A stretch of DNA of 64,000 nucleotides from Thermodesulfobacteriota bacterium (GTDB lineage Bacteria; Desulfobacterota; Desulfomonilia; UBA1062): the NCBI GenBank assembly GCA_036834365.1, contig DAITOA010000001.1, forward strand, positions 15,892 to 79,891. The letters are read 5' to 3'. The notes beneath the pieces were generated by a model that did not search any database, had not been told where the DNA came from, and saw nothing but the letters and a program-made list of their open reading frames with translations. Each line of letters starts with the position of its first letter. Position 1 is the stretch's first letter. The translations under genes and the position numbers were made by a program. Positions 1 to 16,757 of the stretch are shown piece after piece.

Positions 1-2151
1 GAAGCCGCCCGATCCGTCATCGGCCGGCATGGGTGTGTCGGCGCTCACCTCTTCCCAGAACTCCAGGAGGATGACCGTGAAATCGTCATCCAGTGCATCC
101 CTGCAGTTGAATGAACGCACATCGGTTTCAATGGCATCGATGATCTCGTTTCCCCGCAGAGACTGGACGGCCTTCCTGAAACACTTGATGAGACGCTCCT
201 TGCCGTACTGATTCCCGTCGGCATCTTCTGTTTCAATGAGGCAGTCGGTATACATGAGCAGGGCATCTCCCATCCCGATGCCTGTCTCGGCCTTTTCCTC
301 ATACCCGCCGTCCTCGAAGGAACCAAGGAAGAAACCGTCGGTATCGAGCTCCTTGATTTCGCCGGTCGCCCGCTTAAAGAGGAGGGGGGTGGGGTGGCCG
401 GCATTCGTGTAGGTAATGTTCTTGCCGAACCGGTCCGTCAGGACGAAGAAGGCGGTGATGTAATCCTCGTCGAGGACCGGCTTCAGGTCGCGGTTGAGCA
501 TATGCATGAGGATGGTGGGGCTTGCCACTGTGGCTGCAAGTGCATGAAAGCTCATCTTGAACATCGACGAGATGAGGGCCGCGGCCACGCCGTGTCCCGA
601 TACGTCCGCAATGATGAATCCGGTCTGACCTCCGCCCAGGTCGACTACGTCGTAGAGGTCCCCACCGATATGAATGGAAGGAATGTACTTGCAGGTGAAG
701 CTCACACCGTTGAGGTTTTCGAAGGTATCCGGCAGCAGACTCTTCTGGAGCCGGGCGGCCATTTCCAGCTCGCTGACCATGCGATGGTTCTGCGCCCTGA
801 TGATCTCGTTCTTCTCATCCATTTCTGCCAGGGTTATGGTCAGCCTGGCCGCCTGTTCCTCCATAAGATCCCTGGTCTCGGCGCTCTCCATGAGGAGACG
901 CTCCATATCCTCTTTCCGCCGTATCTCCTCTGTCACATCAGTGAAGAGTACAACGGAATATCTGCCTCCCTCCTTCGGTTCCACCGTGTGCAGGGTCTTC
1001 TCTATGGTATGTACGTTGAGATCTTCGGTCTGCAGGGAAACCTGCCGGCTCTTGTTCGAGAGGAGGTCCCTGACGACTCCGGGGGCCTCTGAGACGGATT
1101 TGCCCATGAGGTCTTTTGACCTCAGGGAGGTTATCTCCTCGGCCTTCCTGTTCCACATGATGATGCGCTCAAGATCCGAGACCAGGAGGAGGCCGGACGG
1201 AAACGTCTTGGTGAGCTGGACGATGAAATCGTCGCGTATCATGGGGGCAGGATACGCCACCCTGCCGGGGGCTGTATCCCTGCGGTAAATGAGTCGCACC
1301 TTGTTGCCGCATCCCTCGTAGATAACCTGGTTGAAGAAGTTCTTGGCGATCTGGATGCCGAGACCGCTTCCGATGTGTGCATGGGGATCGGGATTGAATT
1401 CTTTTCGGTAGTCAAAGCCGTTGCCCTGGTCGGTGACGATATATTCCAGTGTGTCCCTCTCCATATAAACCTGGAGTGTCACGACACGGTTCATATAATC
1501 TGGATTTTTCGCTCTCTGCTTCAGAAGTTCCTCGAAGGATCCCTTTTTCACTGCCCTGGCCTTTTCTTCCAGGGAGATGTTCAGGTTTCCGTGCTCCACG
1601 GCATTGAGGAGGATCTCGCCAAGCGCCATCTTGAGCATCTCCACATCGGGACACACGGCCCTGGCGTTCAAGACCGCCTGGTTGATGAAAAAGGGGAGCT
1701 TGTCTATATCGTTACCGAACCGGAGGGCCTTCTGCTCACTGAGGACGCAGTCGGTATCAGGCATGATGCCGATACACAGGGAACGCTGGTGGTCTTGAAT
1801 CCGTATGATACATTCCAAGAGCTTATCGACGGAGACGGGTCTTATGAGGTAATCCAGGACGCCCATGCGTATGCATTCAAGGGCAAGGAAACCGTCAACC
1901 TTGCCGGCGGCTACGATGAGCAGGGCGCCGGGACAGCTGCCGTGAATCTGTCTGAGGGTCTTCAGCCCCGTGTCGTCCTTGGGATCAAGTGCGACGAGGA
2001 CGAGGTCGGGCTTTTCCTCCATCAGGTGGACAAGACCCTCACCGGGGGAGAAGACGTGCAGTGCACGATATCCTTTCCGGGAGATTCTCTTTGCAAGCTC
2101 TCCGGAGGACTTTTCAGGATCGATGATGAGGATGCTCTGAATGACCTTCAT
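1..2151 (-). CDS. Receiver / GHKL Ser-kinase (RsbW-like HATPase) / PP2C (SpoIIE/RsbU-like) phosphatase fusion protein. ATG at 2151. 3' end (C-terminus) runs off the window start.
   Basis: Hand translation of minus-strand frame from 2151: MKVIQSILIIDPEKSSGELAKRISRKGYRALHVFSPGEGLVHLMEEKPDLVLVALDPKDDTGLKTLRQIH (receiver-like). N-box ALGEILLNAVEHGNLNISLEEK at approx. 1567-1632. PP2C motif GGDLYDVVDLGGGQTGFIIADVSGHGVAAALISSMFK at 556-669. Not in the ORF track because it has no stop inside the window. No listed ORFs in this frame across 2 kb. Confidence 0.75.
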   Translation of the reverse strand, partial: MKVIQSILIIDPEKSSGELAKRISRKGYRALHVFSPGEGLVHLMEEKPDLVLVALDPKDDTGLKTLRQIHGSCPGALLIVAAGKVDGFLALECIRMGVLDYLIRPVSVDKLLECIIRIQDHQRSLCIGIMPDTDCVLSEQKALRFGNDIDKLPFFINQAVLNARAVCPDVEMLKMALGEILLNAVEHGNLNISLEEKARAVKKGSFEELLKQRAKNPDYMNRVVTLQVYMERDTLEYIVTDQGNGFDYRKEFNPDPHAHIGSGLGIQIAKNFFNQVIYEGCGNKVRLIYRRDTAPGRVAYPAPMIRDDFIVQLTKTFPSGLLLVSDLERIIMWNRKAEEITSLRSKDLMGKSVSEAPGVVRDLLSNKSRQVSLQTEDLNVHTIEKTLHTVEPKEGGRYSVVLFTDVTEEIRRKEDMERLLMESAETRDLMEEQAARLTITLAEMDEKNEIIRAQNHRMVSELEMAARLQKSLLPDTFENLNGVSFTCKYIPSIHIGGDLYDVVDLGGGQTGFIIADVSGHGVAAALISSMFKMSFHALAATVASPTILMHMLNRDLKPVLDEDYITAFFVLTDRFGKNITYTNAGHPTPLLFKRATGEIKELDTDGFFLGSFEDGGYEEKAETGIGMGDALLMYTDCLIETEDADGNQYGKERLIKCFRKAVQSLRGNEIIDAIETDVRSFNCRDALDDDFTVILLEFWEEVSADTPMPADDGSGGF

Positions 2152-2202: not shown

Positions 2203-3279
2203 TCAGCACTTCTCATTTCGAACCATGTTCATGATGGTGCCGGCGATGGAATGCAGTGATACGATCTTGGACACCCCGCCCATCTCTATGGCGACCTTGG
2301 GCATACCGAACACCACGCAGCTCTCTTCATCCTGTGCTATGGTGAAGGCGCCTGCATCCTTCATTTCCCGCAGGCCCCTCGCCCCGTCGTCACCCATACC
2401 GGTGAGGATGACCCCCAGGGCATTGGGTCCCAGTGTGTTGGCCGCCGACCTGAAAAGGACATCCACTGAGGGAATATGCCGGTTCACGGGAGGACCTTCC
2501 TTTACCCGCACGTAATATCCCTTGGGACCCTTCTGGACGATCATGTGCCTGCCGCCGGGGGCGATCAGTGCCTGACCCTGCTTCAATTCGTCATTGTCCC
2601 TCGCCTCGATGACATTCATGGCGGAAAGCCCGTTGACCCGTTTTGCAAAGGAGTTGGTGAACACAGGCGGCATGTGCTGTACGATCAGGGTCGGAGGGGC
2701 ATCGGCAGGCATCTTGTTGAGTATCTGTTCGAGGGCGACGGTTCCCCCTGTCGATGCGCCGATTATAAGGATCTTTGATCCATCCCGCACGGAGATCAAT
2801 CTTTCCGATTTGATTACGGCATCCATGCCCAGCTTCGGGGGAACGATGAGATTCGGGGGGGAGACGGCCTTTTTCAGTTTGGCCGAGGATGCCGCCCTGA
2901 CCTTGGAACAGAGATCGATCCGCAGGTCTTCTATTCCTTCACTGATCTTCACCTTCGGCTTGGCCAGGAAATCGATGGCGCCTAGCGACAGGGCCTTTAC
3001 CGTGGCATCTGCACCCTGTTCTGTGAGCGAGGAAAACATGACAACGGGCATGGGTGATGAGCGCATGAGCCGGGAGAGGAAGGTGAGGCCGTCCATCTTG
3101 GGCATCTCGATGTCCAGGGTCAGCACATCGGGTTTGAGTTCCTTGATCTTGCGTATGGCAATGAGTGGATCCGGTGCCGTTCCCACCACCTCGATCCCGG
3201 GGTCGGAGTCGAGGATATCCTTGAGGAGTTTCCTCACCAGGGCGGAGTCATCAATGATCAATACCTTTATTTTTTCCAT
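2203..3279 (-). CDS. cheB: Chemotaxis response regulator protein-glutamate methylesterase CheB (receiver + methylesterase)
   Basis: MEKIKVLIIDDSALVRKLL...TLDIEMPKMDGLTF receiver N-terminus plus CheB catalytic domain (GASTGG, HMPPVFT motifs). 358 aa. Confidence 0.9.
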   Translation of the reverse strand: MEKIKVLIIDDSALVRKLLKDILDSDPGIEVVGTAPDPLIAIRKIKELKPDVLTLDIEMPKMDGLTFLSRLMRSSPMPVVMFSSLTEQGADATVKALSLGAIDFLAKPKVKISEGIEDLRIDLCSKVRAASSAKLKKAVSPPNLIVPPKLGMDAVIKSERLISVRDGSKILIIGASTGGTVALEQILNKMPADAPPTLIVQHMPPVFTNSFAKRVNGLSAMNVIEARDNDELKQGQALIAPGGRHMIVQKGPKGYYVRVKEGPPVNRHIPSVDVLFRSAANTLGPNALGVILTGMGDDGARGLREMKDAGAFTIAQDEESCVVFGMPKVAIEMGGVSKIVSLHSIAGTIMNMVRNEKC

Positions 3280-3286
3280 ATCCGTC

Positions 3287-3883
3287 TCACTCGAAGATGG
3301 TCAGCTCGCCACCTTCCGCATGGAGTTTCTCCTTCTCCTGGAAGAGCTTGGTCTTGTATGCCTGTTCCGCCTCGATGATCCGGGAGTCGACCGTCGATTT
3401 GAGCCTCTTGAGCAGGACCTTTGCGGTATCGGGAAAGTACAGGATCTTCCTGCCCGCGTAACCGCCCACATCCTCCTTCACGATCTCGATCTGTTCCATC
3501 TTCAGGAATGCGCGAACGAAATCGATGTTGGACTCGGGAACATTGCCGTCGGTCTTGCGGAAGTTCAGGACATGTCCGCCTCCGAACACCTTCGCCTGGA
3601 AGTGTTTCTGGGAGCCTCCCTTTTTGATCATCTCATTGATCAGCTGTTCCATGGCGAACATACCGTACTTGGCGGACTCGGAAAGGAACATCTCTTCGGA
3701 ACGCACGTCGCCGGGGAGCATGAAGTGGTTCATGCCGCCAATGCCGGTCTTTGTATCCTTGATGCACACGGATATGCATGAACCCAGGACCGTGGCGATG
3801 ACATCCGAGGAACTCACATAGAACTCGCCAGGATAGATGATCACCATGGTCCGTTTGAATTTATCACTGTGTCTTCTATACAT
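3287..3883 (-). CDS. cheD: Chemoreceptor glutamine deamidase CheD
   Basis: VLGSCISVCIKD...GIGGMNHFMLPG matches the CheD signature. 198 aa (start may be an internal Met at 3847). Confidence 0.8.
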   Translation of the reverse strand: MYRRHSDKFKRTMVIIYPGEFYVSSSDVIATVLGSCISVCIKDTKTGIGGMNHFMLPGDVRSEEMFLSESAKYGMFAMEQLINEMIKKGGSQKHFQAKVFGGGHVLNFRKTDGNVPESNIDFVRAFLKMEQIEIVKEDVGGYAGRKILYFPDTAKVLLKRLKSTVDSRIIEAEQAYKTKLFQEKEKLHAEGGELTIFE

Positions 3884-3884
3884 G

Positions 3885-4730
3885 TTACACCTTCTGATAC
3901 ACCGTGTGTTTCAGGAACTTGAAGAGGTGTTTCATGGACATGAGGGATTCCGAATGGCCGATGAACATGAGCCCCATGTCCTTGAGGTGAAGGTGGAACT
4001 TCTGTACCAGGTCCGACTTCGTCTCTTCGTTGAAGTAGATCATGACGTTTCTGCAGAAGATAACGTCGAAGGATCTCTTCATGGGAAAGAGACGGTCCAT
4101 GAGGTTGAGCTTGCGGAAGGTGATCATGTTTTTGATCTCCTTGCTCGCTTCATACCCTTCGACGGTGCGGACCAGGTACTTCGTGATGTAGTTCACTGGC
4201 ACCGGGGCGATCTGCTGACTGGAATAGACCCCCCGGGCCGCCTTGGAAAGGATTTCGGTATCAAGGTCCGTCGCCAGGATCTTGATGTCCCAGCCTCTTT
4301 CCTCCCGGAGGGCGTCGGACACGGTCATGGCAATGCTATAGGGTTCTTCCCCCGACGAGCATCCTGCTGACCATATCCTCAGACGTCTCTCGCGGCCTTT
4401 TCTGGCCACCTCAATGAGGGTGGGAAGTACCTCGTCATGAAGGAACTCAAAATGATGCTTCTCGCGGAAGAAGTCGGTCTTGTTCGTGGTGACGCGGTTG
4501 ATGAGATTGATGATCTCGTTACCGGCATCGGAACTTTCTTTCAGGTACTGATAGTACTCGGAAAAGTTTTTTAAATTCAAAAATCTGAGTCTTTTAGACA
4601 ATCGTGCGACAACCAGATTTCTCTTCCTGTCGGACATGTGGATGCCCGTCTCCCGGTAGATGATTTCCCGAAAGAGTTGGAACTCCTTGTCGGAGATACT
4701 GTATGATTGCGCGCACAGCGTTGAATTCAT
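3885..4730 (-). CDS. cheR: Chemotaxis protein methyltransferase CheR
   Basis: N-terminal CheR all-alpha domain plus SAM-MTase region (FFREKHHFEFL..., IWSAGCSSGEEPYSIAM). 281 aa. Stop abuts cheD start. Confidence 0.9.
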   Translation of the reverse strand: MNSTLCAQSYSISDKEFQLFREIIYRETGIHMSDRKRNLVVARLSKRLRFLNLKNFSEYYQYLKESSDAGNEIINLINRVTTNKTDFFREKHHFEFLHDEVLPTLIEVARKGRERRLRIWSAGCSSGEEPYSIAMTVSDALREERGWDIKILATDLDTEILSKAARGVYSSQQIAPVPVNYITKYLVRTVEGYEASKEIKNMITFRKLNLMDRLFPMKRSFDVIFCRNVMIYFNEETKSDLVQKFHLHLKDMGLMFIGHSESLMSMKHLFKFLKHTVYQKV

Positions 4731-5218
4731 ACGCCATCGACCATATTAAGCTCCTCATCCGAGAGCAGTCTGTCAACATCGAGGAGGATCACGAACTTGT
4801 TGTCCTTGATGCCCATGCCGAAGATGAATTCGGTGCTTACCCCGGTAGAGAAATGCGGACGAGGCTTGATGTCCTCCTTGTTCAGCGTGATGACATCGCT
4901 TACGGCATCAACCACGAGCCCCATGATCCTCCCCGATACATCCAGGATCATGATGACCGTGAACTGGTCGTATTCCTTGATCTCCATGCCGAAGCGCTCG
5001 CGCAAGTCGATGACCGGGACGACGATTCCCCTGAGGTTGAGCACGCCCTTGATGAACCTCGGCACATTGGGGATCGAGGTGCAGCTCTGATATGCGATGA
5101 TCTCGTTGAGCTTGAGGATGGAGATCCCATAGGTCTCCATCCCCAGTTGGAAGGTCACATACTGGTTTGATAGCGCCTTTGCCGTTTCGTTCTGCTGAGC
5201 CATGGGTGTACTCCCCAT
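4727..5218 (-). CDS. cheW: Chemotaxis coupling protein CheW
   Basis: 163 aa, CheW-like domain (YVTFQLGMETYGISILKLNEII...). ATGA overlap with cheR. TAATG overlap with upstream MCP. Confidence 0.9.
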   Translation of the reverse strand: MGSTPMAQQNETAKALSNQYVTFQLGMETYGISILKLNEIIAYQSCTSIPNVPRFIKGVLNLRGIVVPVIDLRERFGMEIKEYDQFTVIMILDVSGRIMGLVVDAVSDVITLNKEDIKPRPHFSTGVSTEFIFGMGIKDNKFVILLDVDRLLSDEELNMVDGV

Positions 5219-6861
5219 TAGAATTCCTCGAAATCGTCTTCGAATTCGGATACTGTTTCGGTTTTTGCCGGTTCCATGCGTGTTTTGTGCTGGGGCTGTT
5301 TTTTCGTTGGGGATTTCTTTGTCCTGGTTGATTCGGTCTCGCGGGTGACCTTGAAGCGGTCCACGGTATCGGCCAGGTCTTTGGCCTCGTTGCTGAGGCT
5401 GTCCGATGTGCTGGCGAGTTCCTCCACCGTGGAAGCGTTCTGCTGGGTGGTGGTGTCGATCTGGGCGATGGCCCGGTTCAGCTCGTCCACGCCTGAAGCC
5501 TGCTCGCTGGATGCCGCGGCGATCTCCTCCATGACCTGGGAGAGGTCCTGGATGTGCCTGATGATCTGTTCCAGGGACTCCCCGGATTTCTTCACCATGA
5601 TGTCGCCAGCGGCGATCTTGTTCACCGTGTCCTCGATGAGGGCCTTGATCTGGCGGGCGGCCTCCGCCGACCTTTGGGCCAGTGCCCGTACTTCTTCGGC
5701 GACCACGGCGAATCCTTTACCGTGCTCGCCAGCCCGGGCGGCCTCGACGGCGGCGTTGAGGGCCAGGAGGTTGGTCTGGAAGGCCACCTCGTTGACCGTG
5801 ACGATGATGTCGCCGATCTTCTTGGATGCGGCGGAGATCTCGCTCATGCCGAGGACGAGCTCCTGGGCGGCTTCTCCGCTGGAGCCGGCCATGCGCACCA
5901 TCTCCGTGGCCTTCTGGCGGCCGTCGGTGGCGTTCTCGGCGTTGTGTTTGATGGAGGAGGTCATCTCTTCGATGGTGGCCGCCACCTCTTCGATGGCCGA
6001 TGCCTGCTCCTGGGTGGCCTGTGAGAGGCCCTGGGCTCCGGCGGCCACCTCCTTGGTGGCGGAATCCACCTGGAGCGAGGAATCCTTCACCCTGGTGATG
6101 ACCTCTTCGAGGTTCTCCACGAAGGTGTTGAACCAGGATGCGATCTCTCCCACCTCATCGGTGGAGTTCACCGGCAGCCGCTTGGACAGGTCGGCCTCGC
6201 CCTGCGCTATGTCCATCATGCTGGATGATATCTCCCGAGCCCTCCTGGCTATCTTGCCGGCGAAGAGTGCGCCGAGCACGGCCACGACGATGGCGGTGAT
6301 GAGGAGGAAAATCAGGAGCTCCATCTGGAGGCTGCGGACCGCTGCGAGGGCCTCGGATGAGGGGACGGCGGCCCAGACGATCCAGTCCAGGGGTTTGATG
6401 TATGCAAGGTAGCTTATCTTGCTGACCCCGCCGAAGGTGTAGTCCGATCTTCCCTGCTTCTTGTCGACGGCCGCCCTTACCCAGTCGTAGGTCTCGTAAA
6501 GGGTCTTGTTGTTGCGGAGTTCCGCCTTCGGGTGGTAGACACAGGTGCCGTCGGGCTGGAAGATGGCAAGGTACCCGGTGTCGAAATACTTTTCCTTGGC
6601 GGCCTCCTTGATGAGGTCGGCCTTGAGGGACTTCATGAGCTGTTCTTTGATGATGTCCAGGTTACCCTCGATGGAAGCGCTTCTCACCTCGGCCATCCTG
6701 GCGTAGGAATCCACCTTCACCTTGAGATACTCGAATGCCTGGTTCTTCAGATGTCCGCTGATGCTTATGCCTACATAGATGATAACGACAACAAGCGGTA
6801 TCAAGCCTGCGGAAAGGATCAGGGCCGTGAGCTTCTCGCGAAGTTTCCATCGTATGCTCAT
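5218..6861 (-). CDS. Methyl-accepting chemotaxis protein (copy 1 of 2, identical)
   Basis: 547 aa: N-terminal TM helix, periplasmic sensor region, second TM helix, HAMP, and an MA signalling domain with a highly conserved hairpin (ALNAAVEAARAGEHGKGFAVVAEEVRALA). RBS aggag upstream. Confidence 0.9.
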   Translation of the reverse strand: MSIRWKLREKLTALILSAGLIPLVVVIIYVGISISGHLKNQAFEYLKVKVDSYARMAEVRSASIEGNLDIIKEQLMKSLKADLIKEAAKEKYFDTGYLAIFQPDGTCVYHPKAELRNNKTLYETYDWVRAAVDKKQGRSDYTFGGVSKISYLAYIKPLDWIVWAAVPSSEALAAVRSLQMELLIFLLITAIVVAVLGALFAGKIARRAREISSSMMDIAQGEADLSKRLPVNSTDEVGEIASWFNTFVENLEEVITRVKDSSLQVDSATKEVAAGAQGLSQATQEQASAIEEVAATIEEMTSSIKHNAENATDGRQKATEMVRMAGSSGEAAQELVLGMSEISAASKKIGDIIVTVNEVAFQTNLLALNAAVEAARAGEHGKGFAVVAEEVRALAQRSAEAARQIKALIEDTVNKIAAGDIMVKKSGESLEQIIRHIQDLSQVMEEIAAASSEQASGVDELNRAIAQIDTTTQQNASTVEELASTSDSLSNEAKDLADTVDRFKVTRETESTRTKKSPTKKQPQHKTRMEPAKTETVSEFEDDFEEF

Positions 6862-8553
6862 ACTGTGATCTCCTCTGTGTATAGACTCATTCTAGAATTC
6901 CTCGAAATCGTCTTCGAATTCGGATACTGTTTCGGTTTTTGCCGGTTCCATGCGTGTTTTGTGCTGGGGCTGTTTTTTCGTTGGGGATTTCTTTGTCCTG
7001 GTTGATTCGGTCTCGCGGGTGACCTTGAAGCGGTCCACGGTATCGGCCAGGTCTTTGGCCTCGTTGCTGAGGCTGTCCGATGTGCTGGCGAGTTCCTCCA
7101 CCGTGGAAGCGTTCTGCTGGGTGGTGGTGTCGATCTGGGCGATGGCCCGGTTCAGCTCGTCCACGCCTGAAGCCTGCTCGCTGGATGCCGCGGCGATCTC
7201 CTCCATGACCTGGGAGAGGTCCTGGATGTGCCTGATGATCTGTTCCAGGGACTCCCCGGATTTCTTCACCATGATGTCGCCAGCGGCGATCTTGTTCACC
7301 GTGTCCTCGATGAGGGCCTTGATCTGGCGGGCGGCCTCCGCCGACCTTTGGGCCAGTGCCCGTACTTCTTCGGCGACCACGGCGAATCCTTTACCGTGCT
7401 CGCCAGCCCGGGCGGCCTCGACGGCGGCGTTGAGGGCCAGGAGGTTGGTCTGGAAGGCCACCTCGTTGACCGTGACGATGATGTCGCCGATCTTCTTGGA
7501 TGCGGCGGAGATCTCGCTCATGCCGAGGACGAGCTCCTGGGCGGCTTCTCCGCTGGAGCCGGCCATGCGCACCATCTCCGTGGCCTTCTGGCGGCCGTCG
7601 GTGGCGTTCTCGGCGTTGTGTTTGATGGAGGAGGTCATCTCTTCGATGGTGGCCGCCACCTCTTCGATGGCCGATGCCTGCTCCTGGGTGGCCTGTGAGA
7701 GGCCCTGGGCTCCGGCGGCCACCTCCTTGGTGGCGGAATCCACCTGGAGCGAGGAATCCTTCACCCTGGTGATGACCTCTTCGAGGTTCTCCACGAAGGT
7801 GTTGAACCAGGATGCGATCTCTCCCACCTCATCGGTGGAGTTCACCGGCAGCCGCTTGGACAGGTCGGCCTCGCCCTGCGCTATGTCCATCATGCTGGAT
7901 GATATCTCCCGAGCCCTCCTGGCTATCTTGCCGGCGAAGAGTGCGCCGAGCACGGCCACGACGATGGCGGTGATGAGGAGGAAAATCAGGAGCTCCATCT
8001 GGAGGCTGCGGACCGCTGCGAGGGCCTCGGATGAGGGGACGGCGGCCCAGACGATCCAGTCCAGGGGTTTGATGTATGCAAGGTAGCTTATCTTGCTGAC
8101 CCCGCCGAAGGTGTAGTCCGATCTTCCCTGCTTCTTGTCGACGGCCGCCCTTACCCAGTCGTAGGTCTCGTAAAGGGTCTTGTTGTTGCGGAGTTCCGCC
8201 TTCGGGTGGTAGACACAGGTGCCGTCGGGCTGGAAGATGGCAAGGTACCCGGTGTCGAAATACTTTTCCTTGGCGGCCTCCTTGATGAGGTCGGCCTTGA
8301 GGGACTTCATGAGCTGTTCTTTGATGATGTCCAGGTTACCCTCGATGGAAGCGCTTCTCACCTCGGCCATCCTGGCGTAGGAATCCACCTTCACCTTGAG
8401 ATACTCGAATGCCTGGTTCTTCAGATGTCCGCTGATGCTTATGCCTACATAGATGATAACGACAACAAGCGGTATCAAGCCTGCGGAAAGGATCAGGGCC
8501 GTGAGCTTCTCGCGAAGTTTCCATCGTATGCTCATACTGTGATCTCCTCTGTG
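5219..8553. repeat. Perfect tandem direct duplication, 2 x 1661 bp (5219..6879 and 6893..8553) separated by a unique 13-nt junction (6880..6892). Each unit carries RBS plus entire MCP CDS.
   Basis: ORF pairs 5218..6861/6892..8535, 5276..6412/6950..8086, 5554..6024/7228..7698, 6662..6850/8336..8524 have identical translations at a constant +1674 offset. Flanks diverge at TAA vs TAG stop and after the shared 18-nt actgtgatctcctctgtg. Confidence 0.9.
6892..8535 (-). CDS. Methyl-accepting chemotaxis protein (copy 2 of 2, identical)
   Basis: Translation is 100% identical to copy 1 (547 aa). All internal antisense ORFs are also identical at an offset of 1674 nt. Confidence 0.9.
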   Translation of the reverse strand: MSIRWKLREKLTALILSAGLIPLVVVIIYVGISISGHLKNQAFEYLKVKVDSYARMAEVRSASIEGNLDIIKEQLMKSLKADLIKEAAKEKYFDTGYLAIFQPDGTCVYHPKAELRNNKTLYETYDWVRAAVDKKQGRSDYTFGGVSKISYLAYIKPLDWIVWAAVPSSEALAAVRSLQMELLIFLLITAIVVAVLGALFAGKIARRAREISSSMMDIAQGEADLSKRLPVNSTDEVGEIASWFNTFVENLEEVITRVKDSSLQVDSATKEVAAGAQGLSQATQEQASAIEEVAATIEEMTSSIKHNAENATDGRQKATEMVRMAGSSGEAAQELVLGMSEISAASKKIGDIIVTVNEVAFQTNLLALNAAVEAARAGEHGKGFAVVAEEVRALAQRSAEAARQIKALIEDTVNKIAAGDIMVKKSGESLEQIIRHIQDLSQVMEEIAAASSEQASGVDELNRAIAQIDTTTQQNASTVEELASTSDSLSNEAKDLADTVDRFKVTRETESTRTKKSPTKKQPQHKTRMEPAKTETVSEFEDDFEEF

Positions 8554-8714
8554 CGATAATTCATGTCACCCTCGAAGCCATAGGAGAATTTCAAATGTGT
8601 TGACTTGTTGACCTGGATTGCTTCCAAGGACGCAACCGCCAGGTCCTTCAAGATCATGAATGAAAAGCTCATGGGTTCTTCTTTCGCATATGCACTAACA
8701 TCATGGGCGCCTCA

Positions 8715-10808
8715 TCATGCCTGGAACGCCATACGTTCGATGCTGTGTACGTCCAGGATGAGGGATACCCTGCCGTTGCCCAGAATGGTCGCGCCTGAAG
8801 TTCCTTCTATCTTCTTGAAGTTCTTGTCGATGCTCTTGATCACAGCCTGGGTCTGGCCGAGAACATCGTCCACCAGGATGCCGAACCTGCTGTCAGCCCC
8901 ATGGAGCACCACCACAAGAGCCTGGGTGGGATCGGTCTTCTCGGAAGGCAGGTTGAAGAGGTGGTACAGACGGACGAGGGGAAGGTAATCGCCTCTGATG
9001 TCAACGAGTTCCCCTTTGCCTTCAACGGTTTTGACCTCGGTCCGTGAGGGACGCACCGACTTGTCAATGACGGAAAGAGGGATGGTAAGAACCTCATCTC
9101 CAACCTTGACCATCATGCCGTCGATGATTGCCAGCGTGAGCGGAAGCTTCACGCGGAAGATGGAACCTTTCCCGTCTTCCGAAGAGATCTCCACGCTCCC
9201 CCTCAGATCCTCTATGTTCCGCTTCACTACATCCATGCCGACTCCCCTGCCGGAGAGCTCGCTGACCTTCTCGGCAGTGGAGAGCCCAGGAGCGAACAGC
9301 ATATCGAAGATGTCTTTTTCGGAATAAGACCTGCCGGCATCAGCCTGACCTTTTTCGATCGCCTTTGCCAGCACCTTTTTCTTGTCAATGCCCTTGCCGT
9401 CGTCCGATATCTCGATGAAGATGTTGCCTTCGCGCTGGAATGCCTTGAGCCAGATGGTTCCGACCTCAGGTTTGCCGAGGCGGCGCCTTTCATCGGGAGG
9501 TTCGATGCCGTGATCAATGGAGTTCCGGATCATGTGTTTCAAGGGATCGCTGATCTGCTCGATGACGTTCTTGTCCAACTCGGTCTCGGTCCCGCTCATC
9601 TTGATCTCGATCTTCTTTCCCAGTTCAAAGGAAAGGTCCCTGACAACCCTGCGGAAACGGTTGAACGTGCCCTCAACAGGAACCATACGAACTCTCATGA
9701 CCTGTTCCTGCAGATCCCGGGAGATCCGCTCCAAAGAGGAAGTTGCCCCCTGTAGTGAACGGGTCAGGGAGGCATCGGTCACCTCGCTGGCGCACTGGGA
9801 CATGCGGGCTACGGAGATCACCATCTCCCCCACCAGGTTCACGAGCTTGTCAAGCTTGTCGGTGTCGACCCTGATGGTGGACGATTTCGCTATCTTTCTG
9901 CTCTGGGATTGAGCGAGGGCCATCTTCTCCACTGCTTCCTTGGAGACCTTGCCCTTTTCCACCAGAGCCTGACCGGTGGTCTTGTGCTCCCTCAGAGTCT
10001 CCATGACATCGTCTTCCCTGACGAATCCTTTTTCCACGAGGATCTCGCCGATGGGTTTTTCGGCCAGGGTAAGATCGATACCTTCCTTGTATTGTGACGA
10101 TATGTCGACGATCACGATCTCATTTTCATCCATGACAAAGATGAAGATGTTGTTTATGTCGGAAATCGTTCTGGTCGTGCGAAGGATGATCTCCCAGGAT
10201 GTATAACAGGTGGTGGGCACGAGATTGTAGAAGTCGGGGATCGTCCCGGTGAAGGCCCGTGACTCGAGGATCTCTCCGAATTCTCGCAGCTCTTGTATGA
10301 GCATGATGGGATCCTGGCCGGTGGAGAGGATGTCCGCACGGAACTTCATGTTGATGGACAGCACCTTTTCTCCGGTTCTTTCCTGGGGTTTCCTCTGGCT
10401 TTCAAGTGTATCGCCGGTCCCTTGTGCTGTGCCGGAGAATCGCTTCAGAGTCTGGACGGATTCCTCGATCTCCTTGCTGTCGATCTCTTCGCCTTCGCTT
10501 CCCGCGGCTATCATCCTTTTCAGAAAATCCACGGAGGTGAGCAGGGTGGAGATGAGCTTTTTCGTTATGCTCAGTTCCTTTTTACGGATCCTGTCAAGGA
10601 TGTTCTCGATGGTATGGGTGTAATTGCTGACATTCTCGAATCCCACTAGCCCTGCGGAACCCTTTATGGTGTGGGCGGCGCGGAAGACCCTGTTGATGGT
10701 ATCTTCGTCCCCGCGTTCTTCTTCCAGTTTGATGAGGCCGTTTTCGAGCTCCCGGATCTCATCCTCGCTCTCTTCCATGAATACCTTGACGAGTTCATCC
10801 ATTGCCAT
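8715..10808 (-). CDS. cheA: Chemotaxis histidine kinase CheA (Hpt, dimerization, HATPase, C-terminal CheW-like domain)
   Basis: 697 aa. Hpt motif RAAHTIKGSAG, HATPase G-boxes, C-terminal CheW-like region. Confidence 0.9.
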   Translation of the reverse strand: MAMDELVKVFMEESEDEIRELENGLIKLEEERGDEDTINRVFRAAHTIKGSAGLVGFENVSNYTHTIENILDRIRKKELSITKKLISTLLTSVDFLKRMIAAGSEGEEIDSKEIEESVQTLKRFSGTAQGTGDTLESQRKPQERTGEKVLSINMKFRADILSTGQDPIMLIQELREFGEILESRAFTGTIPDFYNLVPTTCYTSWEIILRTTRTISDINNIFIFVMDENEIVIVDISSQYKEGIDLTLAEKPIGEILVEKGFVREDDVMETLREHKTTGQALVEKGKVSKEAVEKMALAQSQSRKIAKSSTIRVDTDKLDKLVNLVGEMVISVARMSQCASEVTDASLTRSLQGATSSLERISRDLQEQVMRVRMVPVEGTFNRFRRVVRDLSFELGKKIEIKMSGTETELDKNVIEQISDPLKHMIRNSIDHGIEPPDERRRLGKPEVGTIWLKAFQREGNIFIEISDDGKGIDKKKVLAKAIEKGQADAGRSYSEKDIFDMLFAPGLSTAEKVSELSGRGVGMDVVKRNIEDLRGSVEISSEDGKGSIFRVKLPLTLAIIDGMMVKVGDEVLTIPLSVIDKSVRPSRTEVKTVEGKGELVDIRGDYLPLVRLYHLFNLPSEKTDPTQALVVVLHGADSRFGILVDDVLGQTQAVIKSIDKNFKKIEGTSGATILGNGRVSLILDVHSIERMAFQA

Positions 10809-10811
10809 GGC

Positions 10812-11192
10812 TTACCTCATGAATTTTTTTGTGACATAGACCAGCTGTTCAGGTTTGAAAGGCTTTACGAGCCATCCTGATGCCCCCGCCTGCTTGCCTT
10901 TGAGCTTCATCTCTTCCTGGGATTCGGTGGTAAGCACCAGGATAGGGAGGTACCTGAACGGTGTTTTCTTCACCTCTTTGATGAAGGTGATGCCATCCAT
11001 GACCGGCATATTGATATCGCTGATGATCATGCCGATCACATCACCGTGTTTGTGGGCATCGGTGAGTTTCTCCAGCCCGTCCGCACCGTTGACCGCATTG
11101 ATCGTTTCAAACCCGGCGGCTTTCAGCGTATAGTTGACGGATGCCCTCAGAGTGGCAGAATCATCCACCACGAGGATCTTTTTCTTGATCAT
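10812..11192 (-). CDS. cheY: CheY-like single-domain response regulator
   Basis: 126 aa, MIKKKILVVDDSATLR...ISDINMPVMDGI...LTTESQ...KPF. Confidence 0.85.
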   Translation of the reverse strand: MIKKKILVVDDSATLRASVNYTLKAAGFETINAVNGADGLEKLTDAHKHGDVIGMIISDINMPVMDGITFIKEVKKTPFRYLPILVLTTESQEEMKLKGKQAGASGWLVKPFKPEQLVYVTKKFMR

Positions 11193-11494
11193 GGGAGGGC
11201 CTCCTTCAAGGCAATGCTGAACCCCGAGATCTCGATGATTTCCCGAATGGCAGGATTGATTGCCCTGATGCGCATGGCACCGTCCGCATCGAATGTTTTC
11301 TTGAGGGAGTACAGAAGCTGGAGTCCTGAAATGTCTATCTCCTCAACCCCATCAAGATCCAGGGTGATGACCTGCGATGAATCTTCCAGGAGCGACTCCA
11401 GAGAAGAATGAATGTTCTCGATGTCCGAAACCACGAGATTGCCCTTGCAAACGATTGCACCCTGCCTGTCTATGATGATTTCCATTGTCATCAC
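11189..11494 (-). CDS. STAS-domain protein (anti-sigma-factor antagonist-like)
   Basis: 101 aa with conserved phospho-Ser context ...VEEIDISGLQLL.... ATGA overlap with cheY. Confidence 0.75.
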   Translation of the reverse strand: MMTMEIIIDRQGAIVCKGNLVVSDIENIHSSLESLLEDSSQVITLDLDGVEEIDISGLQLLYSLKKTFDADGAMRIRAINPAIREIIEISGFSIALKEALP

Positions 11495-11799
11495 CTCATG
11501 GATATGGGGAATAGCTTGTCCAGCTTCACTGCTTTGAAGATGTTGAAGAGATTTTCGTGGATACCCTTGATCTCGAAGCTCGCCTTTGCACTGTCAAGGC
11601 TTTTGAAGAACATGAGGATCTTGCCTATGCCTGAAGAACCCATGGTCGGGACCATGGCGAGATCCATTATGACCTTCTTCGGTTTCTGGCCAGCGATCTT
11701 GTTGAGCTCGGTACGCAGGAGTTCCGCGGCTGGAGTGTCCACAGCTCCTGTGACCTTCACATAGAGGGTGTCTCCCGATGACCTGGTTGTAACATCCAT
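11491..11799 (-). CDS. STAS-domain protein (anti-sigma-factor antagonist-like), second paralogue
   Basis: About 102 aa from internal ATG at 11799, which has an aaggag RBS 8 nt upstream (ORF track extends to 11883). Motif ...PTMGSSGIGKIL... Overlaps the downstream STAS gene by 4 nt. Confidence 0.7.
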   Translation of the reverse strand: MDVTTRSSGDTLYVKVTGAVDTPAAELLRTELNKIAGQKPKKVIMDLAMVPTMGSSGIGKILMFFKSLDSAKASFEIKGIHENLFNIFKAVKLDKLFPISMR

Positions 11800-12190: not shown

Positions 12191-13060
12191 ATGAAGAACG
12201 CATTCATACTTGTCATCACCGGTCTGTCAGGGTCCGGAAAGTCGACGGCTCTCAAGGCCATTGAGGATGAGGGCTTCTTCTGCATGGACAACATGCCCAT
12301 CGACCTCATGGACAAGTTTCTCGAGCTCTATGAGTCGGCGTCCTTCACTATCCACAAGGTATGTATATGTATGGATGCCAGGGCAGGTGCACCATATTTT
12401 GCCCAGAAGGCCCCCTTGCTCATAGCCCAGCTTCGGAATCTGACGGAGAATGTACGGCTCATCTTCCTGGAGTCAGGCAAGGAAAACCTCCTGAATCGGT
12501 ACAAGGAAACGAGGAGGAGGCATCCGTTGAGCGAGTCGTACCCGAACCTGCTCGATGCCATCGAGGCAGAGGTAGACCTGCTGGCGCCGCTTCGAGGGAT
12601 TGCCGATTTCATCGTGAACACCTCACAGCTCAATGTTCACCAGCTTGCAGCAAGGATCAAGGAGATCATCTCGACGGAAGATCGGTCCAGAGATATGTAC
12701 ATTGAGGTCAGTTCGTTCGGTTTTAAAAAGGGGATCCCCATGGACTCCGACATCGTCATGGACGTCAGGTTCCTCCCGAATCCGTATTTCGTCGACGAAC
12801 TCAAGGATAAAACCGGGTCAGACAGGGAGGTAAAAGACTTCCTGCGGTCGTCAGAAGTCTATGAACAATTCCTCTCGAAATTCAAGGACCTCATCAGTTT
12901 TATCCTTCCGCTCTGCAAGAAGGAAGGCAGGTCCTATCTCAATATCTCCATAGGTTGTACCGGCGGAAGGCACAGGTCTGTAGCCATTGCGGAAGAGATC
13001 AGGCAGGCAATAGAGGATGCCGGGTATCCAAGCAGGCTGAAGCATCGTGACATCGTATGA
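12191..13060 (+). CDS. rapZ: RNase adaptor / nucleotide-binding protein RapZ (YhbJ)
   Basis: 289 aa, P-loop VITGLSGSGKSTALKALED at N-terminus, RapZ-typical length and C-terminal domain. Confidence 0.85.
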   Translation: MKNAFILVITGLSGSGKSTALKAIEDEGFFCMDNMPIDLMDKFLELYESASFTIHKVCICMDARAGAPYFAQKAPLLIAQLRNLTENVRLIFLESGKENLLNRYKETRRRHPLSESYPNLLDAIEAEVDLLAPLRGIADFIVNTSQLNVHQLAARIKEIISTEDRSRDMYIEVSSFGFKKGIPMDSDIVMDVRFLPNPYFVDELKDKTGSDREVKDFLRSSEVYEQFLSKFKDLISFILPLCKKEGRSYLNISIGCTGGRHRSVAIAEEIRQAIEDAGYPSRLKHRDIV

Positions 13061-13074
13061 GGAGGTTTTAATCT

Positions 13075-13488
13075 ATGGTCGGTATCATTGTTGTCGCGCA
13101 CGGTGATCTTGCACGTGCATTCGAGGAAACAGCCCAGATGATCGTGGGGCCGACAGAGGCCTTCAAAGCCTGTTCCTTTGTGCAGGGTACGGACGTAGAT
13201 GACCTGAGAAGGCTGCTGAAGGCATCCATCAAAGAAGTGAACAGGGGTGAAGGTGTCATCATTCTTACTGACATGTTCGGCGGCACCCCGTCCAATATCA
13301 GCCTGTCATTTTTGGAGAATGGGAAGATCGAGGTGATCACCGGGGTTAATCTCCCCATGGTGATTACAGCGCTTACCAAGAGAAAAGGGAAGGAAATATC
13401 TGAACTGGCTCGCTTGTTGAAAGAAGGGGGCTCGAAGAATATCCATATCGCTTCAGAGATCCTCGCAACGAATGTGGCTGAAAAATGA
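13075..13488 (+). CDS. PTS mannose/fructose/sorbose-family EIIA component
   Basis: 137 aa, MVGIIVVAHGDLA... (EIIA-Man fold with active His in VAHG). Confidence 0.8.
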   Translation: MVGIIVVAHGDLARAFEETAQMIVGPTEAFKACSFVQGTDVDDLRRLLKASIKEVNRGEGVIILTDMFGGTPSNISLSFLENGKIEVITGVNLPMVITALTKRKGKEISELARLLKEGGSKNIHIASEILATNVAEK

Positions 13489-13973
13489 ATGTATTGCTCG
13501 TCAGAGTGGATGACAGATTCATTCACGGGCAGATCCTTGAATCATGGATACCTCACCTGAAGGCCCAGGGCGTCATCGTTGCCAATGATGGTCTTGCTGG
13601 CGATCAGTTTCAGAAGACCATCATGTCCATGGCGATCCCCGACAGGATAAAGCTCAGGATCGTATCTCTGGATGAGGCCCTCAGACTGAGGGATGACTGT
13701 GATTTCAATGAAAAACGAATCTTTGTCATCGTGTCCAGCATAAAGGATGCCCACCGTCTGTTTGTGGGGGGTTTTCCATTCACCCGGCTCAACATCGGGA
13801 ACAACAAGTCCACGACTGAATCAAGGCAGATTTCCTATTCTGTTTGGGTCGACCGCGAAGATCTCCGGCTTGTCAGGGAACTCCTGGACAAAGGGCTTGA
13901 GGTGACGCTTCAATCCGTTCCCCGTGAGCGTCTTATTGACATGAGATCTATTCTTGATATGGTAGATCTATGA
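13485..13973 (+). CDS. PTS mannose-family EIIB component
   Basis: 162 aa, LVRVDDRFIHGQIL motif (phospho-His). ATGA overlap with the EIIA gene. Confidence 0.8.
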   Translation: MNVLLVRVDDRFIHGQILESWIPHLKAQGVIVANDGLAGDQFQKTIMSMAIPDRIKLRIVSLDEALRLRDDCDFNEKRIFVIVSSIKDAHRLFVGGFPFTRLNIGNNKSTTESRQISYSVWVDREDLRLVRELLDKGLEVTLQSVPRERLIDMRSILDMVDL

Positions 13974-14644
13974 TCTTGACCGGATTTCTCGGGGTGCTCG
14001 CCGGCGCCCTTCTGTGGATGGACAGGGTCTTCGTGTTTCAATTCATGATCAGCAGGCCCATGATCATGGGTCCCTTGATCGGCCTTGTCATGCATGATCT
14101 GCATGCCGGGCTCTTGGTGGGCCTTTCCCTGGAGCTTCTGTGGCTGAATGCACCACCCGTTGGTGCATATCTCCCCAATGACGAAAGCTTCTGCACCGCC
14201 GTAGGAGTCCCGGCGGCTGTTCTTGCCGGGTCTTGGGCTTCACCGTCTCAGGCGGCGGGATTGGCCATCCTCCTTTGTCTGCCGGCAGCCCTCGTGGGGA
14301 GGACTCTCGACATGCGGCTGCGGACAATGAACGAGGAGCTCTTGGATGTAAACGAACGCATGTCCGAGAAAAAGATATCACAAGCCATGGTCAAGGCGGT
14401 CCTCCGGTCTTTCATTCTTGCCCTTGTGACGCTCTGTGCATGTGTCATGATTGCCGATGTCATGGTCATTCACGTCGGGAAGATTTTCCCTGATGCGGTT
14501 CTCGCCTCGCTCCCTGTCGTTCCTTTCGCTTGCGTGCTGATCGGTCTGGCGGCCCTCGTATCCCGGGAAATGCCCAGGAGGTCGCATGTAGGCATGTTCG
14601 CCCTGGGTCTCAGCCTGGTGCTCCTGCTCACATGGATCGTATAA
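13970..14644 (+). CDS. PTS mannose/sorbose-family EIIC-like membrane component (short)
   Basis: 224 aa polytopic membrane protein resembling ManY/LevF-type IIC. No IID gene follows. Confidence 0.65.
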   Translation: MILTGFLGVLAGALLWMDRVFVFQFMISRPMIMGPLIGLVMHDLHAGLLVGLSLELLWLNAPPVGAYLPNDESFCTAVGVPAAVLAGSWASPSQAAGLAILLCLPAALVGRTLDMRLRTMNEELLDVNERMSEKKISQAMVKAVLRSFILALVTLCACVMIADVMVIHVGKIFPDAVLASLPVVPFACVLIGLAALVSREMPRRSHVGMFALGLSLVLLLTWIV

Positions 14645-15843
14645 TTGTTCGGACGGCGCTCCCTGAGGACATCGCCGATGTCGTTGCCATCGAGCGCAGA
14701 TCCTTCACATCACCGTGGGACGAGGAGACTTTCGCGACGACCCTTGAGGACGGGCGGTCTATTGCAATCCTGGCCATGGATGATGACGTGGTGATCGGAT
14801 ATTGCATTGCGCTGAGGCTGACTTCCATGGTTCATGTTCTGAACCTGGCGGTTCACCCTGATCGCCGGGGAAAGGGGATCGGAAGAAGGCTCATCCAGGA
14901 GATCTTGAGGGAAACAGCAGCACATGGCAAGTTGTGTGCAGTGCTCGAAGTGAGACGGTCCAACGTTCAGGCCCGGTCTCTCTATACATCCATGGGATTC
15001 TCGCATGTGAGCACCTGGCATAGGTACTATTCAGATACTGATGAGGATGCGGCTATTATGGTGAAGGATTTAAGACCACAGACGGCCCATGATGTGACAT
15101 GTGCCATCGCACATAATGTCGAGGTGGCGGATGGCACATTTCATCTCGTGCTTGAGGGTGAGGTTCCTCGAGGGGATCCCGGGCAGTTCGTCATGGTGCA
15201 GGTAAGCCAGGGCAGCGAACCGTTTCTTAGGAGGCCTCTGGCCATACTCGGGCAGAAAAGCTCGGAGATTGAATTACTCTATAAAATTAAAGGTTACGGA
15301 ACTCGACTGCTCTCGCGGAAAAGAGCCGGTGAACTGGTGAGGGTGCTCGGACCCTTGGGAAAGGGGTTCGGCCGGAGAGCTGCAGGACAGATAATCTATA
15401 TGGCTGGAGGAACAGGGCTACCCCCCTTGCTGGCTCTTGCGGAACATGTCCGACAGGGGGTGTTCATCCTCGGGGCAAAGACGAAAGGTGATCTCCCTTT
15501 GTTGGAAAGGATACAATCGATACCGAACACCCGCAATGTCATCACGACTGAAGACGGGTCATTCGGATGCAAGGGGCTGGCGACGTATATCCTGAGAGAT
15601 CTTCTCTCAGATATGCCTGAAGGTGATGATATCATCCTGTATGCATGCGGGCCCGAGGGCATGCTTCGAGAAGGAGCACGGATGGCTGCACAAAAGGGGG
15701 CTTACTGTGAACTGTCCCTTGAAGAGCGCATGTCATGCGGGTTCGGAGCGTGTGCCGGGTGTGTCGTAAGCACAAGAAAGGGAACCAAGAGGGTATGCCG
15801 CGAAGGTCCTGTATTCGCGGCCGATGATATCAACTGGAGCTGA
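14632..15843 (+). CDS. pyrK: Fusion protein: N-terminal GNAT acetyltransferase (RimI-like) + C-terminal dihydroorotate dehydrogenase electron-transfer subunit PyrK
   Basis: One continuous frame. Residues 1-145 carry GNAT motifs (VVAIERRSFTSPWDE... RRGKGIGRRLI). The remainder is the PyrK FAD/NAD-binding fold plus 2Fe-2S cysteines (CGFGACAGCVV). Start taken at ATG 14632 (13-nt overlap with EIIC stop); the ORF track begins at 14530. Confidence 0.7.
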   Translation: MDRIIVRTALPEDIADVVAIERRSFTSPWDEETFATTLEDGRSIAILAMDDDVVIGYCIALRLTSMVHVLNLAVHPDRRGKGIGRRLIQEILRETAAHGKLCAVLEVRRSNVQARSLYTSMGFSHVSTWHRYYSDTDEDAAIMVKDLRPQTAHDVTCAIAHNVEVADGTFHLVLEGEVPRGDPGQFVMVQVSQGSEPFLRRPLAILGQKSSEIELLYKIKGYGTRLLSRKRAGELVRVLGPLGKGFGRRAAGQIIYMAGGTGLPPLLALAEHVRQGVFILGAKTKGDLPLLERIQSIPNTRNVITTEDGSFGCKGLATYILRDLLSDMPEGDDIILYACGPEGMLREGARMAAQKGAYCELSLEERMSCGFGACAGCVVSTRKGTKRVCREGPVFAADDINWS

Positions 15844-15845
15844 AT

Positions 15846-16757
15846 ATGGATACTTCTGCAAGGATTACACCCGACCTCATATTGAAAAACCCTGTCATGA
15901 GCGCATCGGGAACCTTTGCATACGGCGAAGAGTTTGCCGAGTTCTTTGATCTGGCTCTCCTCGGGGCTGTGGTGACCAAGGGATTGTCGCTGGCTCCCAA
16001 GACCGGGAATCCTACGCCGCGCATTGTGGAGACTGCGTGCGGAATGATCAATTCCATAGGCCTTGAAAACATAGGGATACCAGGATTCATCAAGGACAAG
16101 CTCCCCTTCCTGATGCAATTCGATACCTGCGTAATAACCAACTTTTTCGGAAGCACCGAAGATGACTATGTTCGAGCGGCAGAGGCCCTGAATGTGCATG
16201 GTGTCTCGGCTCTGGAGATGAATGTGTCCTGCCCGAATGTGAAACAGGGCGGTATCGAATTCGGACGGGACCCGGATGCACTTCACACCCTCGTGAAGAG
16301 GGTAAGACAGGTATGCGGGAAACCTCTCATCGTGAAGCTCTCCCCCATGGTTACGGATATAAGGATGAACGCATTGGCGGCAGAGGAGGCAGGGGCCGAC
16401 GCACTCACCTGCATCAATACTGTGCCGGCAATGGCCATAGATGAAAAGGTCCGAAGGCCTATGCTCGGAAACATTACCGGTGGACTCTCAGGCCCTGCCA
16501 TCAAGCCCATCGCCCTCAAGATCGTATGGGATGTCTCCAGGGAGGTCTCCATACCCGTCATTGCGTCAGGAGGTGTTCTGACAGCACAGGATGCCATTCA
16601 GTTCATGCTGGCAGGAGCCACTGCCGTACAGGTCGGCAGCGGCGGCTTGAGGGATCCGCTATGCTATCCTGAGATTATCAAAGGTATCAGCACTTATCTT
16701 GATGAGAACCAGATACAGGACATATCAGATCTCATAGGAGGTCTCCTGACGGATTGA
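15846..16757 (+). CDS. pyrD: Dihydroorotate dehydrogenase catalytic subunit (class 1B)
   Basis: 303 aa, ...SASGTFAYGEEF..., NTVPAMAIDE... Start 3 nt after the pyrK stop. Confidence 0.9.
   Translation: MDTSARITPDLILKNPVMSASGTFAYGEEFAEFFDLALLGAVVTKGLSLAPKTGNPTPRIVETACGMINSIGLENIGIPGFIKDKLPFLMQFDTCVITNFFGSTEDDYVRAAEALNVHGVSALEMNVSCPNVKQGGIEFGRDPDALHTLVKRVRQVCGKPLIVKLSPMVTDIRMNALAAEEAGADALTCINTVPAMAIDEKVRRPMLGNITGGLSGPAIKPIALKIVWDVSREVSIPVIASGGVLTAQDAIQFMLAGATAVQVGSGGLRDPLCYPEIIKGISTYLDENQIQDISDLIGGLLTD

Follow-up and report, generated by a model that had tools for sequence, protein, structure and literature searches.

In the 64,000-nucleotide (nt) window analysed here (the whole stretch of DNA, taken from contig DAITOA010000001.1 of the Thermodesulfobacteriota assembly GCA_036834365.1), a complete gene for a methyl-accepting chemotaxis protein (MCP) is present twice, head to tail, on the minus strand between cheA and cheW of a chemotaxis (che) operon. 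This tandem duplication is a genuine genomic feature, with both copies in the same orientation and one reproducible junction in independent data. We infer, with good though incomplete confidence, that it is young and specific to its lineage, that it segregates with a one-copy form and that it approximately doubles receptor dosage. Local duplication of a chemoreceptor gene is a well-known type of event, of which this is a new example that leaves the current understanding of chemosensory systems unchanged.

Two identical receptor genes between cheA and cheW

Self-comparison of the window showed that positions 5219-6879 and 6893-8553 are 100% identical over an uninterrupted 1661 nt at an offset of 1674 nt, while identity at this offset is only 14-28% immediately beyond the unit on both sides (Table 1). 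The window contains 0 Ns, and chance can be excluded because the receptor-unit pair is its only repeat of at least 40 nt. Three pairs of open reading frames (ORFs), sense and antisense, recur at a constant +1674. Each unit starts 18 nt 5' of the ATG (CACAGAGGAGATCACAGT, with the Shine-Dalgarno (SD) motif GAGGAG inside) and runs to base 2 of the stop codon. Base 3, read on the gene strand, belongs to the sequence beyond the unit, hence TAG in the upstream copy and TAA in the downstream copy. The TAA of the downstream copy leads directly into the conserved 14-nt MCP-cheW spacer (TGGGGAGTACACCC), and the upstream copy retains its cheA-proximal context. No mobile element or other repeat was found near the receptor pair. 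The repeat period of 1674 nt is exactly 558 codons, so the two coding sequences (CDSs) stand in the same frame with a 30-nt spacer between them. Readthrough of the upstream stop codon, which we considered as speculation only since the copies are in frame, would yield a fused double receptor.

A prior sequence-only reading had described two identical 1661-bp units at an offset of 1674 with matching ORFs, a unique 13-nt junction, stop codons that differ because a stop base lies outside the unit, and duplication of a complete receptor gene with its ribosome-binding site (RBS) inside a partner-switch Che operon. The offset-identity run and the ORF pairs bear out the first point, the junction has no other copy in the window, and inspection of the gene strand confirmed the origin of the two stop codons. 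The last point agrees with the receptor domains and with the STAS and REC-HATPase-PP2C genes found in the operon.

Recurrence of the duplication in independent assemblies

Loci of the same species, found by exact-protein look-up, were 99.94-99.98% identical over ~17 kb in many independent assemblies; the host is an uncultured Desulfomonilia/'Deltaproteobacteria' bacterium of anaerobic digesters and belongs to a near-clonal species. Two copies with the same 13-nt junction were present in four other assemblies, namely a SPAdes assembly (ERZ795048; L001), two Joint Genome Institute (JGI) metagenomes (L003 and L004) and NCBI GCA_035397145.1 (L006). Each differs from the window by 3-9 single-nucleotide polymorphisms (SNPs), so the window counts as a further independent assembly. 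Adjacent identical proteins are also annotated in two NCBI metagenome-assembled genomes (MAGs; HPI93634.1/35.1 and HPR53507.1/08.1). From two sequencing runs, Logan contigs (L007 and L008) correspond to exactly the 1661-nt unit, which implies branching of the read graph at either end of the unit; a de Bruijn graph puts out such unit-length contigs for a segment with two left and two right read contexts, and the pattern thus gives indirect support. No Logan contigs of the unit flanks, where the graph branches, were returned, while an exact DNA scan of metagenome contigs for the 3' end of the gene gave no match and a protein scan there gave other species only.

Were the genome single-copy and the gene doubled by the assembler, perfect identity is what would result, and some same-species contigs do show one copy. 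We nevertheless consider a pure assembly artefact highly improbable, since an assembler cannot invent a 13-nt link from the unit end to the unit start. The identical junction occurs in the window and in four assemblies from different samples, whose contig names imply more than one pipeline, and two further read sets yield the unit as a separate contig whose limits coincide exactly with those of the repeat.

Copy number and identity of the copies

One copy only is present in three or four same-species through-contigs. A single unit lies between cheA and cheW in two MEGAHIT contigs (L002 and L085; 69 and 96 kb) and in one JGI contig (L005; 18 kb), and two-copy and one-copy through-contigs both come from near-identical populations (~99.95% identity). 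The two kinds of contig were found at roughly 6 vs. 4 in the CheW look-up and 4 vs. 3 in a look-up with the small upstream ORF. MEGAHIT does not use read pairs to resolve repeats, and its through-contigs with one unit suggest that the junction path is absent or rare in those samples. Copy number is therefore probably truly polymorphic between populations, as would be anticipated from a perfect direct repeat of 1.66 kb, and the earlier proposal that the repeat is prone to copy-number change appears to hold.

The sequence-only reading had also taken zero divergence to imply a recent duplication, ongoing gene conversion or an assembly artefact. The artefact is now largely excluded by the recurrence of the junction and by L007 and L008, while the premise itself has proved weak: where a repeat exceeds the read length, the graph contains a single node that is walked twice, and the copies necessarily come out identical. 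Zero divergence thus cannot be read as a reliable measurement, since the assembler collapses small differences as bubbles. Unit position 234 (K72, AAA or AAG, synonymous) varies between assemblies, with any variant present in both copies of a two-copy assembly. Alleles at this position show four-gamete conflicts with flanking SNPs, which, few as they are, also conflict among themselves. In the single-copy contig L085 we observed Q362E, at unit position 1102 (window positions 5778 and 7452), in a highly conserved AFQTN motif beside the signalling hairpin; the change may be specific to a strain or may betray a difference between copies that the assembly conceals.

These properties bear on whether a real array has been misstated by assembly, with copies that differ at a few merged positions or with at least three copies in some or all cells. 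At 1661 nt the repeat is longer than short reads and is represented by one node in L007 and L008, a loop in the assembly graph does not fix copy number, and copies are identical within every two-copy assembly even where assemblies differ (A/G at position 234, Q362E in L085). The four-gamete conflicts would fit consensus sequences built from mixtures. Positive evidence for inter-copy differences or a third copy was not found, however, and all assemblies that resolved the loop give two copies. We regard such misstatement as doubtful, yet as the most serious of the alternatives to the duplication as assembled.

The 13-nt junction

Together with the next 17-18 nt, the junction makes up the 30-nt in-frame spacer between the two CDSs, and its sequence is the same in every two-copy assembly. 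It has no template in the 64-kb window, where neither another copy nor a shared k-mer of at least 10 nt was found. Three candidate sources (upstream flank, gene start and cheW start) showed similarly weak resemblance by eye; none was accepted, and the likeness of a 13-nt sequence to any candidate source was statistically not distinguishable from chance. We treat the junction as unexplained filler, 13 nt being too short to establish a source.

A 10-codon mini-ORF starts 29 nt upstream of each receptor start, with its stop overlapping the start codon (ATGA; 6862-6894 and 8533-8566, minus strand), and would encode MSLYTEEITV in the junction and MNYRTEEITV 5' of the first copy. In a relative (L018, 7012-7047), the A-to-B spacer is also 30 nt long and shows this mini-ORF layout (MFIMIEEISI), while the overlap is not kept in relatives whose gene starts ATGG. 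The overlap may indicate translational coupling or may merely reflect the GAGGAG RBS.

Origin of the pair

Scans of genome and metagenome collections yielded ~75 related loci. In trees, the window protein groups among single-copy orthologues of 80-85% amino acid (aa) identity from nine assemblies (L016, L030, L047, L019, L046, L068, L010, L048 and L051), some of them MEGAHIT through-contigs. With its nearest sampled relatives single-copy, the duplication is best placed in this lineage alone. At either end of the unit, identity falls abruptly from 100% to the background level; duplication breakpoints would produce such a step, and there is no graded zone of the kind seen in the mosaic of L058, a related locus with two receptor genes. 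In L058, the paralogues (2965-4593 and 4645-6294) are 43-65% identical in the sensor region and share a 689-nt perfect nucleotide run in the signalling domain, flanked by a zone of 82-91% identity. To judge by its sequence, this pair is a clear mosaic, attributable to gene conversion or to a collapsed repeat.

We propose that a head-to-tail duplication of the operon-embedded receptor gene arose once, after the split from the nearest sampled relatives, and that the two-copy form now segregates alongside the single-copy form. The near-identity of the copies would then reflect youth, homologous exchange between the 1.66-kb repeats and the way in which short-read assemblers represent them, and unequal crossing-over between perfect repeats would also yield the one-copy form.

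Several observations weigh against this scenario. The junction is not the simple join of downstream flank and upstream flank expected of a fresh duplication; without a template or a flank origin, it implies that filler was inserted or that time has elapsed. One-copy contigs could in principle be collapsed assemblies, and neither exact identity nor a copy number of 2 can be verified from short-read assemblies. Finally, the position-234 variant stands in both copies of L001 and L006, which, if not an assembly effect, requires exchange between the copies.

The junction that cannot be derived from the flanks and the position-234 variant in both copies would equally fit an old tandem pair that has been kept identical, one paralogue having been overwritten over its full length by gene conversion or by repeated unequal crossing-over. 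Exchange would have been anchored in the conserved RBS region and in the C-terminal DDFEEF-stop, with the junction as the surviving inter-paralogue spacer. Identity does run from the RBS to the stop codon, and no other short stretches are shared by all paralogues; L018 likewise has an A-to-B spacer of 30 nt, which begins AATG after the stop and matches at 19/30 positions (by eye); and conversion between tandem paralogues is documented at this locus by the 689-nt block of L058. Conversion across a ~50% identical sensor domain would lack the homology it needs, however, and the window pair shows no graded transition zone like that of L058. The likeness of the junction to any candidate source lies within chance, and all nine nearest sampled assemblies are single-copy, although a tandem paralogue is easily lost and such relatives are weak counter-evidence. 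A remnant of an older receptor copy was also sought in the 179-nt cheA-MCP spacer and its 46-aa ORF and was not supported (nucleotide and protein local alignments vs. shuffles, p = 0.1-0.8), which likewise speaks against an old pair. On balance, we consider this history unlikely.

A related and likewise unlikely account holds that the pair is a long-lived, copy-number-variable array, homogenised over its whole length by continual exchange and kept by selection because it sets gain or stoichiometry in a partner-switch (sigma-factor) pathway that does not serve motility. Receptor copies at the slot between cheA and cheW would then repeatedly be born, converted, diverge and be lost across a Desulfomonilia-like clade, and the window would show this cycle at its youngest or most homogenised. 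A conversion tract would show up only against older divergence around it, which the window pair lacks; in L058 the pattern is that of concerted evolution. We retain the single young duplication as the preferred explanation.

Tandem receptor pairs at the same slot in relatives

The slot between cheA and cheW is duplication-prone, with independent or old pairs in several relatives. L057 and L018 hold tandem pairs of their own, and an old A/B pair characterises the clade of L022, L023, L024, L058 and L061-L064, in which the sensors are 44-53% and the signalling domains ~80% identical in aa sequence.

Four further short MAG contigs (L027, of 1773 nt, L032, L034 and L035) hold a receptor 3' end, a ~50-nt spacer and a receptor 5' end and thus bridge tandem copies. 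As conserved cores broke the assembly in these cases, tandem pairs are probably under-reported in the clade. L027 was also considered as a circular loop contig arising from a perfect duplicate; its 92-nt identical termini do not match the overlap expected from MEGAHIT at k=141, and its identical ends more likely reflect a conserved core block shared by the copies. L018 shows cheA-MCP-MCP' and the 94-96% identical L055 shows cheA-MCP-cheW, a copy-number difference between close relatives. Contigs are broken here, and L021, from the same MAG as L018, does not continue the second copy of L018.

Receptor protein and che operon

The receptor gave hits to MCPsignal (2e-46) and HAMP (3e-12), with partial hits to dCache_2 and Cache_3-Cache_2 at residues 40-178 and hydrophobic stretches, read from the sequence, at residues ~10-32 and 180-203. 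These features identify it as a predicted transmembrane Cache-sensor MCP, with a single periplasmic Cache-like sensor between the first and second transmembrane segments (TM1 and TM2). Its layout runs TM1, Cache-like sensor, TM2, HAMP, 36-heptad (36H)-like MCP signalling domain, long linker and C-terminal DFEEF. Residues 150-524 align in a single stretch with residues 166-537 of the E. coli Tsr chain (375 vs. 372 residues); this match in cytoplasmic length suggests the 36H class. The C-terminus reads ...EFEDDFEEF after a ~45-aa low-complexity linker, and the DFEEF tail is kept in all relatives and paralogues. Pentapeptides that tether CheR and CheB are defined as C-terminal xZxxF, with aromatics at positions 2 and 5, a pattern that the tail fits as a putative tether.

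On the minus strand the operon runs STAS, STAS, cheY, cheA, mcp, mcp, cheW, cheR, cheD, cheB and a REC-HATPase_c_2-PAS-SpoIIE gene. The product of this last gene, the output protein, comprises REC (7-115), HATPase_c_2 (169-288), PAS and SpoIIE/PP2C (507-698). A search of the gene strand for promoters and terminators in the operon and near the repeat was negative, and no structured RNA of Rfam matched the repeat or its surroundings. The window holds no MCP gene besides the pair. The sequence-only reading had gone on to propose a single receptor feeding the pathway, a claim that is not supported: in related MAGs, additional paralogues located elsewhere (L028, L029 and L031) have this signalling domain and the DFEEF tail as well. 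A 41/46-aa ORF in the unusually long cheA-MCP spacer (8532-8672, minus strand) is called by gene finders in several assemblies; it matched no Pfam family and was not significantly similar to the receptor.

Table 1 Positions of the receptor repeat and of the che operon genes in the 64-kb window.
Feature	Position	Strand	Remarks
Repeat unit, upstream (cheA-proximal) copy	6893..8553	-	18-nt leader and CDS to second stop-codon base; 100% identical to 5219-6879
SD GAGGAG, upstream copy	8544-8549	-	
Receptor CDS, upstream copy	6892..8535	-	547 aa; stop TAG (6892-6894)
Unique 13-nt junction	6880..6892	-	+ strand tatagactcattc, gene strand GAATGAGTCTATA
Repeat unit, downstream (cheW-proximal) copy	5219..6879	-	SD at 6870-6875
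Receptor CDS, downstream copy	5218..6861	-	547 aa; stop TAA (5218-5220)
Two STAS anti-sigma-antagonist-like genes	11189-11485, 11491-11799	-	operon start
cheY	10812-11192	-	
cheA	8715..10808	-	upstream neighbour; Hpt, dimerisation, HATPase and CheW-like domains
cheA-MCP intergenic region up to unit	8554..8714	-	full gap to ATG 179 nt, 46% GC
cheW	4727..5203	-	158 aa from ATG 5203, SD GGGGAG; longer 163-aa ORF starts at 5218
cheR	3885-4730	-	
cheD	3287-3883	-	
cheB	2203-3279	-	
CrsR-like output protein	1..2151	-	720 aa; last 3 codons cut by window edge

Dosage and comparison with known systems

Each copy has its own SD and would be carried on the same cheY-cheA-mcp-mcp-cheW-cheR-cheD-cheB transcript, giving about 2x receptor synthesis relative to CheA and CheW. 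The extra receptor would supply a 36H/F7-like array with STAS and REC-kinase-PP2C partner-switch output. Doubled receptor dosage is likely on these grounds, and any effect would be one of dosage only, since identical copies have no new ligand specificity yet. Arrays need receptors in several-fold excess over CheA and CheW, a requirement of array architecture that makes a dosage benefit plausible. If one-copy and two-copy forms coexist, receptor dosage in a partner-switch, sigma-factor-controlling pathway varies between near-clonal digester populations.

RecA-dependent tandem duplications, known from classical work in Salmonella and E. coli, make a kb-scale direct repeat that is expected to be unstable and to coexist with the single-copy form. 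In contrast to these, the present unit is one gene only, its junction carries 13 unexplained nt rather than a clean join, and many samples share the arrangement, which is thus no passing state of a culture.

Duplication of receptor genes is a major and frequent driver of receptor evolution, followed by divergence of the sensor domain or by loss (PMC6974571). The older pairs at this locus follow that published pattern, with sensors at ~50% and signalling domains at ~80% aa identity. PctA, PctB and PctC of Pseudomonas aeruginosa are likewise receptor genes duplicated in the same genomic neighbourhood; the window copies differ in being undiverged in the assembly, strictly adjacent (30-nt spacer) and inside a che operon. 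Tlp2, Tlp3 and Tlp4 of Campylobacter jejuni have identical signalling domains and sensors that are ~30% identical (PMC9769880), which is the pattern of the 689-nt block of L058, whereas identity in the window covers the whole gene and its RBS. With an undiverged duplicate of the whole gene inside a che operon, the window thus provides a clean example from nature of how the expansion of a chemoreceptor family begins, while the same slot in the clade samples later stages in the form of diverged sensors, a converted signalling domain and loss. It also carries a practical warning, as perfect repeats of this size in short-read MAGs are identical by construction and are reported as one or two copies depending on the assembler.

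The che1 cluster of Shewanella oneidensis encodes six Che proteins, two MCPs, CrsR and CrsA (PMC9855816). The window locus resembles it in combining CheA, CheY, CheW, CheR, CheD and CheB, two MCP genes, a REC/PP2C/anti-sigma-kinase regulator and one or more STAS antagonists, but the che1 MCPs are different proteins (Aer2 and McpA) and those of the window are identical copies. CrsR and HsbR have the domain order REC-PP2C-kinase (PMC6482189), relative to which the output protein of the window (REC-HATPase-PAS-PP2C) is permuted and has an extra PAS domain. The window has two STAS genes, compared with the HsbR/HsbA partner switch of P. aeruginosa and the CrsR/CrsA switch of Shewanella. Sequestration of RpoS is a further hallmark of the CrsR/CrsA type. 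By analogy, we take the cluster to work like the che1/CrsR partner-switch system; with a domain order other than that of CrsR, it is not filed as an orthologue.

Genes adjacent to the operon

Divergent from the che operon, genes for RapZ and for mannose/sorbose-type phosphotransferase system (PTS) components EIIA, EIIB and EIIC (12191-14644, plus strand) are kept in all same-species contigs. An unusual fusion (14530-15843, plus strand) joins a GNAT acetyltransferase domain to a PyrK-like module (NAD_binding_1 and a DHODB Fe-S binding domain), and directly downstream of it lies a dihydroorotate dehydrogenase gene (15846-16757, plus strand).

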